Below, one piece after another: positions 57,643-61,932 of a DNA stretch of 64,000 bases. The stretch is from a virus, in IMG/VR virus record IMGVR_UViG_3300030497_000008, positions 97,392 through 161,391 of that record. One strand, 5' to 3'. The stretch's first letter is position 1. Every line of letters begins with the position of its first letter. Made by a program: the position numbers and the translations under genes. Under the pieces are notes generated by a model that ran no database searches, was not told where the DNA came from, and worked only from the letters and a program-made list of their open reading frames with translations.

Positions 57643-57673
57643 ATAATCATCGTCCTCTCGTGTTTGATAGTTC

Positions 57674-57702
57674 TATCATTACCAAAATAAAATGATTTAT
57701 AC
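57674..57702 (-). promoter_or_regulatory. putative SigF/SigG-type promoter
   Basis: Minus strand GTATA-N14-GGTAATGATA; overlaps palindrome TGATAG-TT-CTATCA (57665-57678). Confidence 0.4.
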
Positions 57703-57927: not shown

Positions 57928-58458
57928 ATGATTATCAATTACAACGCAAAACACAAAGATGCTTGGGTAGAGTACACACCTTTTAAAAAGGTTCAGATGC
58001 AGGAGGATGCTACGGTTTTTATGTATCAAAATATAAAGGAGGAGATAATGAATGCAACAGGCATGCAGAAGTTAAAAAAGATAAAGCAAGCAAAGAAGAT
58101 AATCAGGATGTCACTGTCAATATTAGGAGCAAGCGCAGGTCTTTCGACGAGAGCCTTTGCAAGTGGAGTGACAGGGAACACACCTCTACTAAGTCCGTTC
58201 AGTCCTTCCGTAATGGTGGAGTACGGACTACAAGTAGCGTTCCTAGCGGTAGGGATAGCAGTCGCACTGAGCATTGTACTATTAGTAATAGCAGGAACAT
58301 TGAGAATGTTCAGAAAAAGCAACGAAGCCAACATGTGGACACAGGATATTATAAAGGGGATAACGCAAGTACTGATAAGCGTTCCGAGTATCTACATCAT
58401 ATACCGAGTAGCAAGTTACTTATTCAGAAATTTAAACTTCTTAAGTCTAGGCTTCTAA
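57928..58458 (+). CDS. pilin/VirB2-like membrane protein
   Basis: Basic N-region, AFA cleavage site, 2 TM helices; second strong RBS start at 58048. Confidence 0.55.
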   Translation: MIINYNAKHKDAWVEYTPFKKVQMQEDATVFMYQNIKEEIMNATGMQKLKKIKQAKKIIRMSLSILGASAGLSTRAFASGVTGNTPLLSPFSPSVMVEYGLQVAFLAVGIAVALSIVLLVIAGTLRMFRKSNEANMWTQDIIKGITQVLISVPSIYIIYRVASYLFRNLNFLSLGF

Positions 58459-59558
58459 AGATTGGAACAATACCAGCAGCAGTTATCTCAACGTTCTTCT
58501 TCACTTCTATAGGAGACAGAGCATACGCGGAAACGATTAGTAATGACTCATTCTTTGACAAAGGTAAGAGCATGTTCTCTGGGTTCATTAAAGATTCGTT
58601 CATGCCCTCTACACCAAACCCAATAAAAGAAGTTATGGATTGGTTCGGGGAGTTTGTGAATCTGATTAAGGATTTACCACACAATATTGTAAAGATGTCC
58701 GCAGAACTATTATCTTGGATATATGACTTATGTGCTGGGCTTATTCTTAAAACACCCTTGTTCTTATTCGATAATGAATGGTTCACAACGATGAGCTTAG
58801 GGTTCAGTGGCGTATCTGTAGGGATTGTAGTTGTACTTACTATTATAGAATGTATCAAGCGTATGTTATCTGGAGCAAATAAGAAGTTAAGACCGATGGA
58901 GTTTACAACAATCATGAAGCGTTGGTCTTTAGTAGCTGGTGTTACTTCCATTACACCTTTCTTATTCAAATCTGCTTTTAAGGTTTTGAATTTCATATCT
59001 GGTAAACTCACAAGCATGGGTAGCGAAATTATGACAGCTAGTGCCTTGACTACTACATTTAGTACGATTGATGTCATCACCTTGTTAGTATTCGATGCGA
59101 TACTGATTTCTACGGTAATCCCGATGCTATGGACAAATGGAAGAAGATTCTTTGACTTACTGGTACTAGGCGTAGTAGCTCCTGTCGCATTATCTTGTTG
59201 GGTATTTGATTCACATAGACATTTCTTCAATCAATGGTGGAGTAACGTAAAGCATTTATCTCTCGTGCAAGTCTACCATTCTCTGTTTCTATTAATAATC
59301 GGATTATTCATTTTTGGTATCCCATTCCCAGCAGACTTCACAGGCACAGTGGTTAAGTTGCTCGTTGTAATCGGAGGATTTGCTCGTATGCAGAACCCAC
59401 CTAAAATTATTGCAAATAAATTAGATAACGGAAAGGGATTAGACGAAGTGATGAAGAGTAATGTGAAAGAGACATCTAAAAAGTTAATTAAGAACTTTGC
59501 GATGTCAAAAGCTACAATTTTAAGTCCGCTAACGTTATTTAAGAAAATTAAAAAATAA
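58335..59558 (+). CDS. polytopic membrane protein, VirB6/TrbL-like (start uncertain)
   Basis: 6-7 TM helices; RFFDL...APVALSCW...FFNQWW resembles the VirB6 core. Confidence 0.6.
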   Translation: MDTGYYKGDNASTDKRSEYLHHIPSSKLLIQKFKLLKSRLLKIGTIPAAVISTFFFTSIGDRAYAETISNDSFFDKGKSMFSGFIKDSFMPSTPNPIKEVMDWFGEFVNLIKDLPHNIVKMSAELLSWIYDLCAGLILKTPLFLFDNEWFTTMSLGFSGVSVGIVVVLTIIECIKRMLSGANKKLRPMEFTTIMKRWSLVAGVTSITPFLFKSAFKVLNFISGKLTSMGSEIMTASALTTTFSTIDVITLLVFDAILISTVIPMLWTNGRRFFDLLVLGVVAPVALSCWVFDSHRHFFNQWWSNVKHLSLVQVYHSLFLLIIGLFIFGIPFPADFTGTVVKLLVVIGGFARMQNPPKIIANKLDNGKGLDEVMKSNVKETSKKLIKNFAMSKATILSPLTLFKKIKK

Positions 59559-59570
59559 GGAGAGGTTCTT

Positions 59571-59684
59571 ATGGGTATCACAACACTGATTTTACTGAAT
59601 ACAACGATGTTATTGGCAACTGCTGCTGTGAATGCTGTGCAATGTGTAATCATTATGAAGGAGTTGAAGCATCGTGAAGAATAG
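59571..59684 (+). CDS. 37-aa membrane peptide (not in track)
   Basis: AAGGAGAGG RBS; MGITTLILLN...; overlaps the FtsK start. Confidence 0.6.
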   Translation: MGITTLILLNTTMLLATAAVNAVQCVIIMKELKHREE

Positions 59685-61932
59685 AGGATATAGAAACATA
59701 TCGAATTACTTCTCTCAAGTAGAGGATGTACCAAAGGCACTCAACCATATCCTACAGACAGATACAGATGGTGTGTTCGGTTTAGAGGTAGAACTATTTA
59801 AAGGTGGGCGTAATATTACAGTTGTTACGCCTCCCCAGATTCGTTTTGATGAGACAAATGTTTTACCGTATCGTTTAACACTCCTGTCTAGGCGTACAGA
59901 CGACGTGTATGCTTATGAAGGTTATTTATCTAGACCGAGTTTCTTACCGTTGTATGGAGGTATGAAGGGCTTATTCTTAAAAGAATTGCTGGAGATACAA
60001 GTGAGGGATGATGAAGTTATAGAAATACAGTGGTTGTTCAAGAAATATGTGGATGATTGGTTGATGACATCTATTGATAGATATCGCAGTTACTTGGCTG
60101 GTAATGATTATCCTGCTGGAACGAAAATAGGGAGAAGGTTTCAAGATAAGATACTCCATACGATTAATAAATTGTCATCCTTTGATATGGCTCGAACATA
60201 TAGTGAGAAAGTGGAACAGAAGATTATCGGTAATGTGTTCAAATTTAAACTAGGAGTTACGATTCGTTCTAAAGAGCCTTCAACGCTCGTACAGCAGCTA
60301 GAAACGATATTCCGTAAATATGACTCACATAATTCATTAAGCCTCTACAAACGCAAGATAAAGGGCTTAAAAGATGAATATGAGGAAAGGCTTGTAATGA
60401 ATGGAGACAATGTACTAAGTGATGTGGAAATCGTATCCTTACTAGGAGGGAACGTAGTAGCTCCTCACAAAGAGTTGACTGTTGTTCCTGATAACACTGA
60501 ACAGGTTGTAGCAAAGAAAGGCACACCTAGTAAGAATATCGGAGGACTTGTTGAGGTGCTGCCTACATATCCACGAGAAGAAGTGAAAGTTGATGAGAAT
60601 ATTGTACCCGCTATAGCAGAAGCTATGAAGCGTGTAGGACTTATTAAACGAGCGCAGCTAACAAGTAGTTATATCACTTCGGGTGTGCGGTTAACTGTTG
60701 TTCAATGTGATATCCCTAAGAATAAGAATTTAAGTCATTTGCGCTCCAAGGCGACCGATATTCAAGCGGCTCTAGGTGTACCTTCCCTTAGTATAGAACA
60801 AGGAGACGAACCTGATACTGTTAAATTTACCCTTCCGAACGAAGAACCTTCTATTATAAGCTTACGGGAGTTATTAGAAGATGAACGATTTCAAGAATAT
60901 GCACTGGATAATGACCTCCCATTCGTTGTAGGTGTGAATGAAATTGATGAACCGATATACTTATCCCTTAGTAAGCTCGTGCATCTCATGATTGCGGGTA
61001 CAACTGGTTCTGGTAAATCAGTGTTCTTGAATGCTTTGATTGTTAGTTTAATGGCTTCTACGCCTCCAGAACTATTACAATTCTTTATGATTGACCCTAA
61101 GATGGTGGAGTTAGCTCACTATGAGGGTATGGCGCATGTGGCAAAAGTAATTACAAATATGGAGAAGGCAGGAGAAACCTTAAGCCGTTTAACAATAGAA
61201 ATGGATAACCGATACAAAGTATTCAAGGAGCAGGGAGTTAAGAATATCAAACTGTACAATGAAGTTGCAGAAGAGAAGATGCCATATCTCGTATGTGTGA
61301 TTGATGAGTATGCGGACTTATTCGATGTAAACTCAGCAGTAGAGACGTATGTGACTCGCTTAGGGCAGAAAGCTCGTGCAGCAGGAATTCATTTAGTTAT
61401 CGCTACCCAGAGACCAGACTCGAAGGTTATCAGTGGACGTATTAAAACAAATGTACAGAATGCCATCAGTTTCAATTTAAATAGTAATACGAACTATCGT
61501 ACGGTATTCGGGAAAGGGATTGACTACACGCTTATGGGGCGTGGGGATGGTGTCATGAAAATAGAAGGATACCCAAAGGAATTCCAAAGGTTTCAAAGTG
61601 CTATTGTATCTCCTAATGAATCTAAAGAAGGAGAAGTATTCCATACGATTAAAGAATACTTTGGTGAAGTAGCAGACCACGAAGAGCCAGATAATGACGA
61701 TGAGGCTACAGAGGATGAGCCATTAGTTAAATTGAAGAAGATTATCGCTCGTACAAGAGAAACAAAGGTTGGTAGATTGCGAGAGCTTATGGAGATTAAG
61801 GCAGAGGTATTGACTGAGCTGATGGGGCAGTTAGTGGAGGAAGGTTGGCTTATCAAGCATGCATCTAAGGCGAAAGGCTATGAGCTTATTATTCCAGATG
61901 AGATGTTAGATAAATATAAAGGAGATTGGTAA
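59674..61932 (+). CDS. FtsK/SpoIIIE-family DNA translocase
   Basis: HLMIAGTTGSGKS, IDPKMVEL, VIDEYADL, ARAAGIHLVIATQRP; C-terminal winged helix. Confidence 0.93.
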   Translation: MKNRGYRNISNYFSQVEDVPKALNHILQTDTDGVFGLEVELFKGGRNITVVTPPQIRFDETNVLPYRLTLLSRRTDDVYAYEGYLSRPSFLPLYGGMKGLFLKELLEIQVRDDEVIEIQWLFKKYVDDWLMTSIDRYRSYLAGNDYPAGTKIGRRFQDKILHTINKLSSFDMARTYSEKVEQKIIGNVFKFKLGVTIRSKEPSTLVQQLETIFRKYDSHNSLSLYKRKIKGLKDEYEERLVMNGDNVLSDVEIVSLLGGNVVAPHKELTVVPDNTEQVVAKKGTPSKNIGGLVEVLPTYPREEVKVDENIVPAIAEAMKRVGLIKRAQLTSSYITSGVRLTVVQCDIPKNKNLSHLRSKATDIQAALGVPSLSIEQGDEPDTVKFTLPNEEPSIISLRELLEDERFQEYALDNDLPFVVGVNEIDEPIYLSLSKLVHLMIAGTTGSGKSVFLNALIVSLMASTPPELLQFFMIDPKMVELAHYEGMAHVAKVITNMEKAGETLSRLTIEMDNRYKVFKEQGVKNIKLYNEVAEEKMPYLVCVIDEYADLFDVNSAVETYVTRLGQKARAAGIHLVIATQRPDSKVISGRIKTNVQNAISFNLNSNTNYRTVFGKGIDYTLMGRGDGVMKIEGYPKEFQRFQSAIVSPNESKEGEVFHTIKEYFGEVADHEEPDNDDEATEDEPLVKLKKIIARTRETKVGRLRELMEIKAEVLTELMGQLVEEGWLIKHASKAKGYELIIPDEMLDKYKGDW

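Follow-up and report, generated by a model that had tools for sequence, protein, structure and literature searches.

The VirB6-like membrane protein of a large Bacillus myophage is probably produced by a programmed -1 frameshift at a T_TTT tetranucleotide (58017-58020) inside the preceding pilin-like gene, and not from a start codon of its own. The DNA analysed, called the window here, is a 64-kb stretch from a Bastillevirinae phage. Our reading is drawn from sequence comparison: the VirB6-like open reading frame has no conserved start of its own, is read in the -1 frame relative to the pilin-like gene, and has a cleavable-looking signal peptide as its first hydrophobic segment, so that a frameshift coupling the two genes is the best reading. 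A preliminary description of this DNA had proposed such a coupling, setting the ratio of the two proteins, at a pair of slippery heptamers near the 3' end of the pilin-like gene (58428-58437). The coupling stands as the best reading, but entry into the -1 frame appears to lie about 410 bases upstream of that place. The features of the locus are as follows.

57928 to 58458, + strand: pilin-like gene (0 frame), 176 aa (alignments; PHROG 3528)
57984 to 57986, + strand: last -1-frame stop, TAA; the -1 frame is open from 57987 to its stop at 59556-59558
58015 to 58020, + strand: GTT TTT with the proposed -1 shift site T_TTT at 58017-58020 (aligned NNT TTT)
58020 to 58458, + strand: overlap read in the -1 frame, a putative linker of about 149 aa (shuffles, stop positions, composition)
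58036 to 58044, + strand: internal SD-like element AAGGAGGAG (comparison with relatives)
58074 to 58080, + strand: A_AAA_AAG, a classical -1 heptamer of bacteria, in phase where the gene is Lys-rich; candidate second place of entry into that open frame
58335 to 58337, + strand: GTG, first canonical start codon of the -1 frame after 57987
58428 to 58437, + strand: overlapping heptamers A_AAT_TTA (58428-58434) and T_TTA_AAC (58431-58437)
58434 to 58529, + strand: signal-peptide-like segment of the -1-frame protein, KLLKSRLLK, then IGTIPAAVISTFFFTSIG, then DRAYA
58530 to 59558, + strand: predicted mature VirB6-like polytopic membrane core, including the stop codon (PHROG 3750, AF2, Foldseek)
59674 to 61932, + strand: FtsK/SpoIIIE-type ATPase, downstream cassette partner (Pfam PF01580, 3.6e-49)

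The pilin-like and VirB6-like proteins

The upstream gene has a Shine-Dalgarno (SD) sequence, AAGGGAG, 8 nt ahead of its ATG at 57928. Its product opens with a conserved segment of 30-45 aa and a Lys-rich stretch, followed by a hydrophobic leader ending in AFA at about residue 78, two transmembrane helices (hydrophobic segments 94-130 and 141-166) and the motif W-x-x-D-I-I-K-G. Propilins of the VirB2/TrbC type have a long leader with an AxA site and two transmembrane helices joined by a short cytoplasmic loop. Alignments and hydropathy recover the long leader, the AxA site and both helices here, which suggests a propilin-like (VirB2/TrbC-like) architecture. A match to PHROG 3528 spans the whole protein, and Pfam and NCBIfam gave none. 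The AF2 model (pLDDT 60) is poor outside a helical hairpin at residues 93-165; no pilin appeared among the PDB profile or Foldseek matches, which with a model of this low confidence is a weak negative.

The core of the VirB6-like protein was modelled better (pLDDT 80), and its best five Foldseek matches in the PDB are without exception TrwI/VirB6 chains from plasmid R388 (E 8e-3 to 6e-2, probability 0.99-1.0, TM 0.29-0.47). TrwI is also the sole match of a profile search against PDB sequences (E 0.26). No match was found in Pfam or NCBIfam at E <= 0.1 to 1, Pfam TrbL/VirB6 included, and the searches of Pfam, NCBIfam and PHROG placed neither of the two proteins in a family of assigned function. 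VirB6/TrwI (PDB 7o3v, 8rtd) is the best and only consistent structural match, though with low TM-scores, and both proteins are polytopic with an exported N-terminus. The surroundings differ from those of VirB6/TrwI systems: the partner ATPase is FtsK-like, VirB8 and VirB10 genes are absent from the vicinity of the VirB6-like gene, and no VirB4 was found among the window ORFs scanned, which cover part of the neighbours, or in the annotations of related loci. The neighbouring genes encode an actin-like ATPase, small membrane proteins and the FtsK/SpoIIIE ATPase, and synteny with the latter is kept in all loci examined.

The comparison comprised 50 distinct genes, forming 28 clusters at 70% identity. 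The first set was 19 Bastillevirinae phages; it was extended by IMG/VR loci (28-41% identity), by loci from metagenomes and genomes, and by phage 0305phi8-36 together with three Bacillus megaplasmids. At the protein level the VirB6-like protein matches 146 phage records and a dozen megaplasmids, with 126 clusters of relatives; a nucleotide-level search of plasmids with the locus DNA gave no match, while the protein-level search did yield relatives.

The first hydrophobic segment of the VirB6-like frame appears to be a conserved, cleavable signal peptide. The preliminary description had noticed this stretch (LKSRLLKIGTIPAAVISTFFFTSIGDRAYA), and the AxA site is conserved in all relatives; n-, h- and c-regions are kept in every genus, with indels in multiples of three. 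The segment straddles the stop codon of the pilin-like gene (58456-58458), and AYA ends at 58529, residue 201 of the trans-frame product, so that cleavage behind it would leave a mature N-terminus of ETISND…. Ahead of the signal peptide no start codon is conserved across relatives, which agrees with the absence of a start codon in homologues that had been suggested as a check. Annotations reflect this: in about 20 records inspected at least four different starts had been chosen and in some the gene was left out altogether, and gene callers produced forms of 500-611 aa with junk-like N-termini from other relatives. Long annotated forms (015DV004 gene 76, 507 aa; P0013-P0090) were considered as pilin-VirB6 fusions and rejected, since each represents that open -1 frame, begun at an upstream codon picked arbitrarily.

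Entry into the -1 frame

In all 50 relatives (28 clusters) no stop interrupts the pilin-like gene's -1 frame over a run of about 135-165 codons, and in 19/19 of the first-examined Bastillevirinae the run is 145-164 codons. In the window the run is 156 codons, against a longest run of 68 in the 57 other ORFs, where -1 stops occur at 0.11 per codon. When synonymous codons were shuffled, the probability of finding no -1 stop was 0.0002-0.03 per phage (0.095 in one phage), and the +1 frame of the same genes holds 18-27 stops. The part upstream of the 58335-equivalent codon taken by itself still gives 0.004-0.09 per lineage. That the -1 frame is open already from 57987, and not merely from 58335, had been missed in the preliminary description.

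The 5' boundary of this run is sharp. Over its first 30-60 codons the gene has many -1-frame stops, and the last of them falls 3-29 nt before an aligned NNT TTT; in pBFI_1 it adjoins the TTT directly. For the 20 codons past T_TTT the shuffled probability of having no -1 stop is 0.1-0.85 per lineage, and multiplication by hand over about 13 lineages, taken as independent, gives roughly 5e-7. The entry point is bounded by the data to T_TTT plus about 20 codons, and not to one codon.

The aligned NNT TTT is present in 26/28 clusters and the other two have TCT TTC and CCT TTA; T_TTT/C/A thus stands at the aligned place in 28/28, and all forms permit re-pairing with UUU. For comparison, TTT makes up only 44% of the Phe codons, and T-ending codons 19%, in the same genes. 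In the window tRNA-Phe on TTT 58018-58020 can re-pair with TTT 58017-58019, and the next -1 codon is TAT 58020-58022. The window's G_GTT_TTT departs from the canonical X_XXY_YYZ heptamer: as a tetranucleotide site it would let a single tRNA, that for Phe, re-pair. Some relatives have canonical heptamers at the same place (T_TTT_TTA, T_TTC_CCC, A_AAT_TTT).

Most relatives also carry an SD-like element, GGAGGTGA[TA], 16-19 nt past the TTT codon; Moonbeam, L058, L060 and L063 have it only in weak form or not at all. Over 58003-58063 the identity at synonymous sites between genera is 0.6-0.73, against a baseline of 0.40 +/- 0.05. The Phe and the E-V residues encoded by the SD-like codons are also conserved in the 0-frame protein, and part of the nucleotide conservation could therefore be at the protein level. 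The element was considered as a ribosome binding site and rejected: in the window an in-frame ATG (58048) follows it, but many lineages have no start codon after it in a useful frame or spacing. Known stimulators of -1 shifts are a hairpin or pseudoknot 5-9 nt downstream or an SD sequence 10-14 nt upstream. Past T_TTT, RNAalifold finds no consensus pairs and single-sequence folds are not significant, mostly pairing the U run with the purine-rich SD-like element; at 10-14 nt upstream of T_TTT there is no conserved SD-like element. Transcriptional slippage was rejected because the T run, of only 3-6 nt (CTTTC in L057, CCTTTA in L058), is too short.

With 31 K+R against 18 D+E, the linker that the -1 frame encodes is basic; it is also rich in S/T/N/R and devoid of hydrophobic segments. 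Its amino acid sequence is not conserved while stops are excluded, and synonymous sites over 58100-58300 are at baseline, which gives no support for a functional -1-frame peptide. The absence of constraint fits a spacer that is translated but free in sequence. Since the linker is basic and has no hydrophobic segment, the segment that follows is predicted to be N-in/C-out, and AYA, or the lipobox of 0305phi8-36, would face outward.

Other routes to the VirB6-like protein

Two other routes are, in our estimation, improbable, and to the same degree. The first is independent initiation at GTG 58335; the precursor, of 407 aa, would then carry a cytoplasmic N-region of 41 aa ahead of its signal peptide. 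An [A/G/T]TG stands at the aligned position in 30/30 sequences scored (ATG in 22, GTG in 6, TTG in 2), the long leader of the upstream protein indicates that long N-regions are tolerated in the system, and some annotators have picked this start. The preliminary description had found no ribosome binding site there, and indeed the codon has no SD sequence, though the phage's other genes have strong ones. It is explained as a by-product of a conserved 0-frame Trp codon (xxN TGG) and A-rich third positions; the 41 residues of the N-region are poorly conserved, and the 100 or more stop-free codons further upstream would be left unexplained, given the shuffled probabilities for that part. The conserved [A/G]TG could nevertheless add some independent initiation.

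The second is a -1 shift within the Lys-rich stretch, at A_AAA_AAG (58074-58080) or another A_AAG, with the SD-like element stimulating from upstream as in dnaX or Bacillus subtilis cdd. The heptamer is in phase in the window and present in 10/19 phages (alignment column 84 or 90), an NNA AAG occurs somewhere along the stretch in every lineage, and the site follows the SD-like element and lies inside the interval of about 20 codons that the stop statistics permit. Against this, the heptamer is conserved neither in position nor in presence, and the spacing to the SD-like element is anything between 5 and 101 nt where 10-14 nt is needed, for which reason the element was rejected in the role of an upstream stimulator for A_AAG. 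Selection against -1 stops would by itself favour A-ending codons ahead of Lys, and the NNT TTT motif, with the stop boundary just before it, would go unexplained. A further in-phase heptamer, A_AAG_GGN at the DIIKG motif (58351-58357), occurs in about half of the phages and was set aside, since the conserved K-G residues account for it.

The site originally proposed, at which the whole pilin-like protein would be fused to the VirB6-like protein ten codons before the pilin-like stop, we regard as very unlikely. The codons there are AGA (58426), AAT (58429), TTA (58432), AAC (58435), TTC, TTA, AGT, CTA, GGC, TTC and TAA (58456-58458). Both heptamers are, as described, in-phase X_XXY_YYZ sequences within 58426-58437 (ORF 57928..58458, frame 1 mod 3), a slip there does enter the frame of ORF 58335..59558 (GTG start, frame 0 mod 3), and slippage on T_TTA_AAC has been proven for other systems. 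The heptamers lie in a 30-nt block (58423-58452) that is invariant among Bequatrovirus relatives, and towards the gene's 3' end the identity at synonymous sites climbs to 0.5-0.6. However, such invariance is expected, because two frames are coding there, the C-terminus of the pilin-like protein over the n-region of the signal peptide. Conservation of the heptamers, which had been suggested as a check, extends only to Bequatrovirus-like phages: three other genera have partial look-alikes, and in several, as in Mater, Grass and TsarBomba, the final 100 or more codons contain none that is in phase. The 57 other ORFs of the window have 50 in-phase heptamers in 15,154 codons (0.0033 per codon), and a single one in the 41-codon overlap is unremarkable since about 0.14 are expected by chance; we estimate that overlapping double heptamers arise by chance about three times per window, and the significance of the site taken alone is at most weak. 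Stimulatory structure is lacking, in line with the earlier remark that no strong hairpin is evident (58438-58520 folds worse than its own shuffles, z +1.7), and the upstream open frame of about 150 codons is not accounted for. In addition, a fusion behind the second transmembrane helix would turn the next hydrophobic segment out-to-in, and as judged from hydropathy AYA would then face the cytoplasm, on the wrong side of the membrane for the signal peptidase cut that had been envisaged.

Ordinary initiation at ATG 58572, with the upstream open frame and the signal peptide untranslated, we dismiss as the least probable route of all: its SD, called weak in the preliminary description, is moderate (AAAGG at 7 nt) and makes this the strongest SD/ATG pair that the frame offers, the annotations of Spock and Chotacabras use this start and PHROG 3750 begins nearby, but the preceding segment is conserved as protein in all genera (n-h-c regions, AxA, indels in threes), the ATG is not conserved beyond close relatives and the VirB6-like protein would have no export signal.

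Proposed mechanism and comparison with known systems

We propose for the frameshift at T_TTT the following course. Ribosomes would initiate at ATG 57928, and at codon 31 a fraction of them would slip one base back as peptidyl- or aminoacyl-tRNA-Phe re-pairs with the overlapping TTT. The slipped ribosomes would read the -1 frame through the remainder of the pilin-like gene to 59555, while the unshifted majority would make the pilin-like protein. The resulting product would consist of 31 shared N-terminal residues, the basic linker of about 150 aa, the signal or anchor segment and the VirB6-like core, with the junction peptide VQMQEDATVFYVSK. The fusion of 543 aa predicted earlier keeps its length wherever the shift occurs, but would share only the first 31 upstream residues and not the pilin body. 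The sequence of the linker would not matter as long as it is free of stops, and the N-in/C-out signal or anchor segment ending in AYA would probably be cut by signal peptidase. Sharing a single RBS would fix the ratio of pilin-like to VirB6-like protein. What the sequences show is the layout of the locus, how far it is conserved and the statistics; the slippage as an event, its exact codon, its efficiency and the cleavage are what we infer. A speculative stimulus is a ribosome paused on the SD-like element, which would place the next, collided ribosome about 30 nt upstream, on T_TTT. More broadly, it is conceivable, though we hold it doubtful, that this is an ancient family-wide device, in which a minimal U_UUU -1 shift 30-70 codons into the gene leads through a disposable 'delivery leader' of about 150 codons, removed by signal or lipoprotein peptidase, with unconventional stimulation by the downstream SD-like element, on which a ribosome would pause or stand by, or by the nascent peptide with its 30 conserved residues.

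The nearest known parallel in sequence is phage T7 gene 10A/10B, where Condron et al. are said to have found in 1991 a -1 frameshift at G_GUU_UUC with essentially only tRNA-Phe re-pairing. The window's G_GTT_TTT is nearly the same sequence, and in T7, as proposed here, the major and the minority product have their N-terminus in common. The T7 shift, however, comes close to the gene's 3' end and appends a short tail, whereas in the window it would occur at codon 31 and open a -1 frame of 512 codons, about 146 of which overlap a functional gene. In dnaX, the IS3-family orfAB and cdd, -1 shifts set the ratio of two products from one RBS with the involvement of SD-like sequences, at sites of the type A_AAA_AAG or CGA_AAG with an SD 10-14 nt upstream and/or a downstream hairpin; the -1 frameshift of Bacillus subtilis cdd was reportedly described by Mejlhede et al. 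in 1999. The window differs from these in that its SD-like element follows the candidate site, at a distance of 16-19 nt, and that structure is not conserved. A short shared N-terminus followed by a long reading in another frame over a functional gene recalls two genes of RNA viruses, potyvirus P3N-PIPO and influenza PA-X, which arise in eukaryotic viruses by polymerase slippage or +1 shifts, and we know of no long trans-frame overlap of this type in a membrane module of a dsDNA phage.

The same cassette as in the window is found in phage 0305phi8-36, in which a 'DNA translocation operon' (orf200-207) with an actin-like protein, small membrane proteins, the VirB6-like orf203, the FtsK-like translocase orf201 and a relaxase has been described (Pathria et al. 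2012, PMC3357382). There orf203 was annotated as a separate gene of 286 aa and a frameshift was not mentioned (PMC3357382); our literature searches found neither a frameshift described in this cassette nor proteomic, ribosome-profiling or reporter data on it. In our analysis orf204/orf203 show the same overlap of a pilin-like gene with a -1 frame, with the motif A_AAT_TTT. The 0305phi8-36 cassette differs in its additional relaxase and in its VirB6-like signal, which is of the lipoprotein type, with LSG|C at the place of AYA in the window.

If this reading is correct, annotations of the channel protein in the 'DNA translocation' cassette are probably wrong in well over 100 sequenced Bacillus phages and a dozen megaplasmids, and the real VirB6-like product arises by a recoding event that lies outside the model of any gene caller. 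The event would be a deeply conserved -1 frameshift of a structure unusual for bacteria and phages, in that the site engages one tRNA, no stimulator of a classical kind accompanies it and the overlap extends over 150 codons, and it would show how the cassette sets the ratio of pilin-like to VirB6-like protein from a single RBS. Changes silent in the 0 frame would then abolish the channel protein alone, which would provide a genetic handle on the function of the cassette.

Gene content and occurrence of the cassette

Over 2 kb, the locus in the window shares 80-86% DNA identity with the Bacillus cereus-group myophages SWEP1, Spock, B4, Troll and BigBertha (Herelleviridae, Bastillevirinae, Bequatrovirus). 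At the nucleotide level the locus matched 110 phage records and no plasmid. The cassette is the "DNA translocation operon" of phage 0305phi8-36, which was described informatically by Pathria et al. 2012 (PMC3357382), where recoding is not mentioned. It comprises the following genes.

Cassette neighbour: actin-like (Alp/ParM) ATPase
Cassette gene: DUF7394, small membrane protein of 64 aa
57928-58458: pilin-like gene, 176 aa
58335-59558 as listed: VirB6-like ORF
Cassette neighbour: FtsK/SpoIIIE ATPase

The upstream protein matches PHROG 3528 and has the architecture of a propilin (long leader, AFA, two TM helices); no pilin match was found by sequence or fold. The downstream protein matches PHROG 3750 (function unknown) and nothing in Pfam or NCBIfam. 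Its sole sequence-profile match in the PDB is TrwI (E 0.26), and the top five PDB matches of its AF2 model (pLDDT 80) are all TrwI/VirB6 of R388, with weak scores; "VirB6-like" is a reasonable label for this putative member. Near the cassette, the one sequence that matches a sigma-A-like promoter well (TTGATA-18-TAAAAT, 57664-57693) lies just 5' of the DUF7394 gene, and no promoter-like or terminator-like site was found between the pilin-like and VirB6-like genes.

Some relatives vary in content. In a subset of Bequatroviruses, the VirB6-like gene is separated from the small ORF preceding the FtsK-like gene by an inserted HNH homing endonuclease gene that runs on the opposite strand (Atlee, locus L004, 2362-3087; also BillyBob, Taffo16, Riley, AvesoBmore and Phrodo). 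Three distant relatives (L063, L065, L067) have a tubulin-family (PF00091) gene in place of the actin-like one, and retain the pilin-like/VirB6-like/FtsK-like part. Bastillevirinae encode an M23 or metallo-endopeptidase as a gene of its own, two genes upstream; in a metagenomic relative (L066:293-2320) an M23 peptidase domain lies in the same frame, preceded by the -1-frame linker and followed by the VirB6-like core, within 676 open codons. A copy in a large bacterial contig (L060, GCA_004799045.1, 214 kb), near a small acid-soluble spore protein gene, may be a prophage, plasmid or integrated element; the pilin-like gene of this copy has a greater length, with 275 open codons. "Xanthomonas phage Xoo-sp15" (157 kb) has a Bacillus-phage-like copy (57% identity) and "Arthrobacter citreus" NEB 577 a Bacillus-type cassette on a 250-kb plasmid; these host or taxon labels may be wrong.

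The open -1 frame and the candidate shift site

We compared 18 annotated relatives from about 12 genera. Without exception, the open frame is the -1 frame of the pilin-like gene; in 19/19 phages no stop interrupts it over the 145-164 codons that lead up to the stop of that gene. When synonymous codons were shuffled within each pilin-like gene, 2-6.5 stops were expected in the -1 frame, with a probability of none of 0.0002-0.03 (0.095 in one case); the +1 frame holds 18-27 stops. The other ORFs of the window have 0.11 stops per codon in their -1 frame, which nowhere stays open for more than 68 codons; in the pilin-like gene it is open for 156. Within its first 30-60 codons the pilin-like gene has frequent -1 stops, which cease abruptly at alignment columns 56-62 in 18/19 phages; for the window the column is 46. 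Sampling was widened by a profile scan of IMG/VR, which reached relatives down to 28% identity, and an all-against-library search gave 126 clusters, in which many gene calls are of 500-611 aa with S/R/N-rich N-termini, these being the -1 read of a hydrophobic gene. The same anatomy was found in contigs of six distant clusters, in phage 0305phi8-36 and in three megaplasmids, for a total of 50 distinct upstream genes (28 clusters at 70% identity).

58015-58020: GTT TTT, candidate shift motif (T_TTT, 58017-58020)
58036-58050: strong internal SD-like element inside the pilin-like gene, AAGGAGGAG (in most relatives GGAGGTGAT)

The motif NNT TTT follows the last -1 stop by 3-29 nt in all sequences but two, which read TCT TTC and CCT TTA; in pBFI_1 the stop abuts TTT. 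All lineages have a -1 stop within 3-29 nt upstream of the motif, nearer to it than background stop density would suggest. All of the sequences have TTT in the -1 frame, with which the tRNA of the 0 frame (Phe or Leu-UUA) can re-pair by moving back one base. Among the Phe codons of pilin-like genes TTT is in the minority (44%), and only 19% of all their codons have T as the last base, which argues that it is the nucleotide sequence of the motif that is conserved. No lineage has a -1 stop in the 20 codons that follow it (shuffle probabilities 0.1-0.85 per lineage; hand product roughly 5e-7, about 13 lineages being treated as independent), and this points to -1 entry at the motif or no more than about 20 codons beyond it. 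Synonymous-site identity is raised to 0.6-0.73 over 58003-58063, and no conserved RNA structure was found at the site. An SD-like GGAGGTGA[TA], weak in four lineages, lies 16-19 nt 3' of TTT in nearly all, is conserved at synonymous sites and precedes the first in-phase A_AAR by 5-101 nt. It is seldom followed by a usable start codon, and many genera have no start codon there at all; the window phage has an in-frame ATG (58048) 5 nt after the element, which could yield a shorter pilin-like precursor starting MNATGMQKLKK…. A second T_TTT (CCT TTT AAA AAG, 57979-57990) lies 36 nt upstream of the candidate site, where a -1 slip would meet the -1-frame TAA 57984-57986 at once.

Taken on these comparative and statistical grounds, from which we infer the exact codon, efficiency, stimulator and cleavage alike, it is quite likely that ribosomes shift to the -1 frame early in the pilin-like gene, on T_TTT or in the next 20 codons or so, and the shift site is probably T_TTT itself. 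Phage T7 gene 10 (G_GUU_UUC) and B. subtilis cdd offer parallels. The stop statistics would also allow a shift at Lys sites such as A_AAA_AAG (58074-58080), but these sites are not conserved.

Alternative starts and the proposed 3' shift site

The downstream frame encodes a signal peptide (n-region K[RST]xLLK, h-region IPxAVxST…, c-region AYA, ALA or AFA) that is conserved in all genera, with indels in multiples of three; in the window it is the stretch KSRLLKIGTIPAAVISTFFFTSIGDRAYA recognised in the preliminary description. The VirB6-like ORF appears to lack a conserved start of its own: in the annotated relatives we found no ATG, GTG or TTG that is both conserved and equipped with an SD ahead of the signal peptide, and annotators therefore disagree on the start.

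Spock and Chotacabras: equivalent of ATG 58572
Troll: later than the equivalent of ATG 58572
Atlee and TsarBomba: equivalent of 58335
015DV004: 285 nt further upstream
Grass: VirB6-like gene not annotated at all

In phage 0305phi8-36 (L069, reverse strand; ORF204/ORF203) the protein opens with a lipoprotein-type signal, KKRAVLIAPMFLSG|C, not AxA; its lipobox LSG|C occupies the AYA position, which strengthens the view that the segment would be a processed export signal, and annotated ORF203 (286 aa) begins well within the conserved protein. In Bacillus phage BCP12 (L018) the VirB6-like frame is shortened to 395 open codons, the remainder being annotated as separate small ORFs, the cause being a frameshift mutation or an error in the sequencing of that record.

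Initiation at GTG 58335, a position that is ATG in most relatives, gives no account of the open frame upstream; the GTG arises incidentally from a conserved Trp codon and, as previously noted, has no SD. A start at ATG 58572 would leave out the conserved signal peptide.

The preliminary description had placed the shift near the end of the pilin-like gene, where the 0-frame codons AGA AAT TTA AAC (58426-58437) do contain in-phase A_AAT_TTA and T_TTA_AAC, and a -1 slip does enter the frame of the downstream ORF. On its own this site is weak evidence, because the window's other ORFs hold 50 in-phase heptamers in 15,154 codons and the sequence after it, where no strong hairpin had been seen, has less structure than shuffled versions of itself. 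Only the Bequatrovirus cluster retains the heptamers, and in it the surrounding 30 nt are invariant; other genera read, e.g., TTC AAA AAC TTG CCA or CAA GGC TTA CCA, and Mater, Grass and TsarBomba lack any in-phase heptamer over at least their final 100 codons. Synonymous-site identity rises modestly towards the 3' end (0.5-0.6 vs 0.40), as predicted where one sequence encodes both the C-terminus of the pilin and the n-region of the signal peptide. The full pilin-like fusion cut at AYA would also sit badly with the topology, as a shift after TM2 of the pilin-like protein, whose C-terminus is outside, would invert the signal segment, and this site is very improbable as the main route to the VirB6-like protein.

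The predicted trans-frame product

A shift at T_TTT would join 57928-58020 to 58020-59555, giving 543 aa with no stop, in which the last residue of AYA is number 201 (58529). The linker, 149 aa long, has a basic composition (31 K+R, 18 D+E) and is S/T/N/Q-rich with no hydrophobic stretch, and synonymous sites across 58100-58300 are at baseline. The linker sequence appears to be free, with only its openness selected, which fits a ribosome path rather than a functional domain. By the positive-inside rule, a basic cytoplasmic linker would orient the next hydrophobic segment N-in/C-out, so that AYA would face outward. The N-terminus of VirB6 is exported, and an outward AYA would suit cleavage and an exported N-terminus of the same kind.
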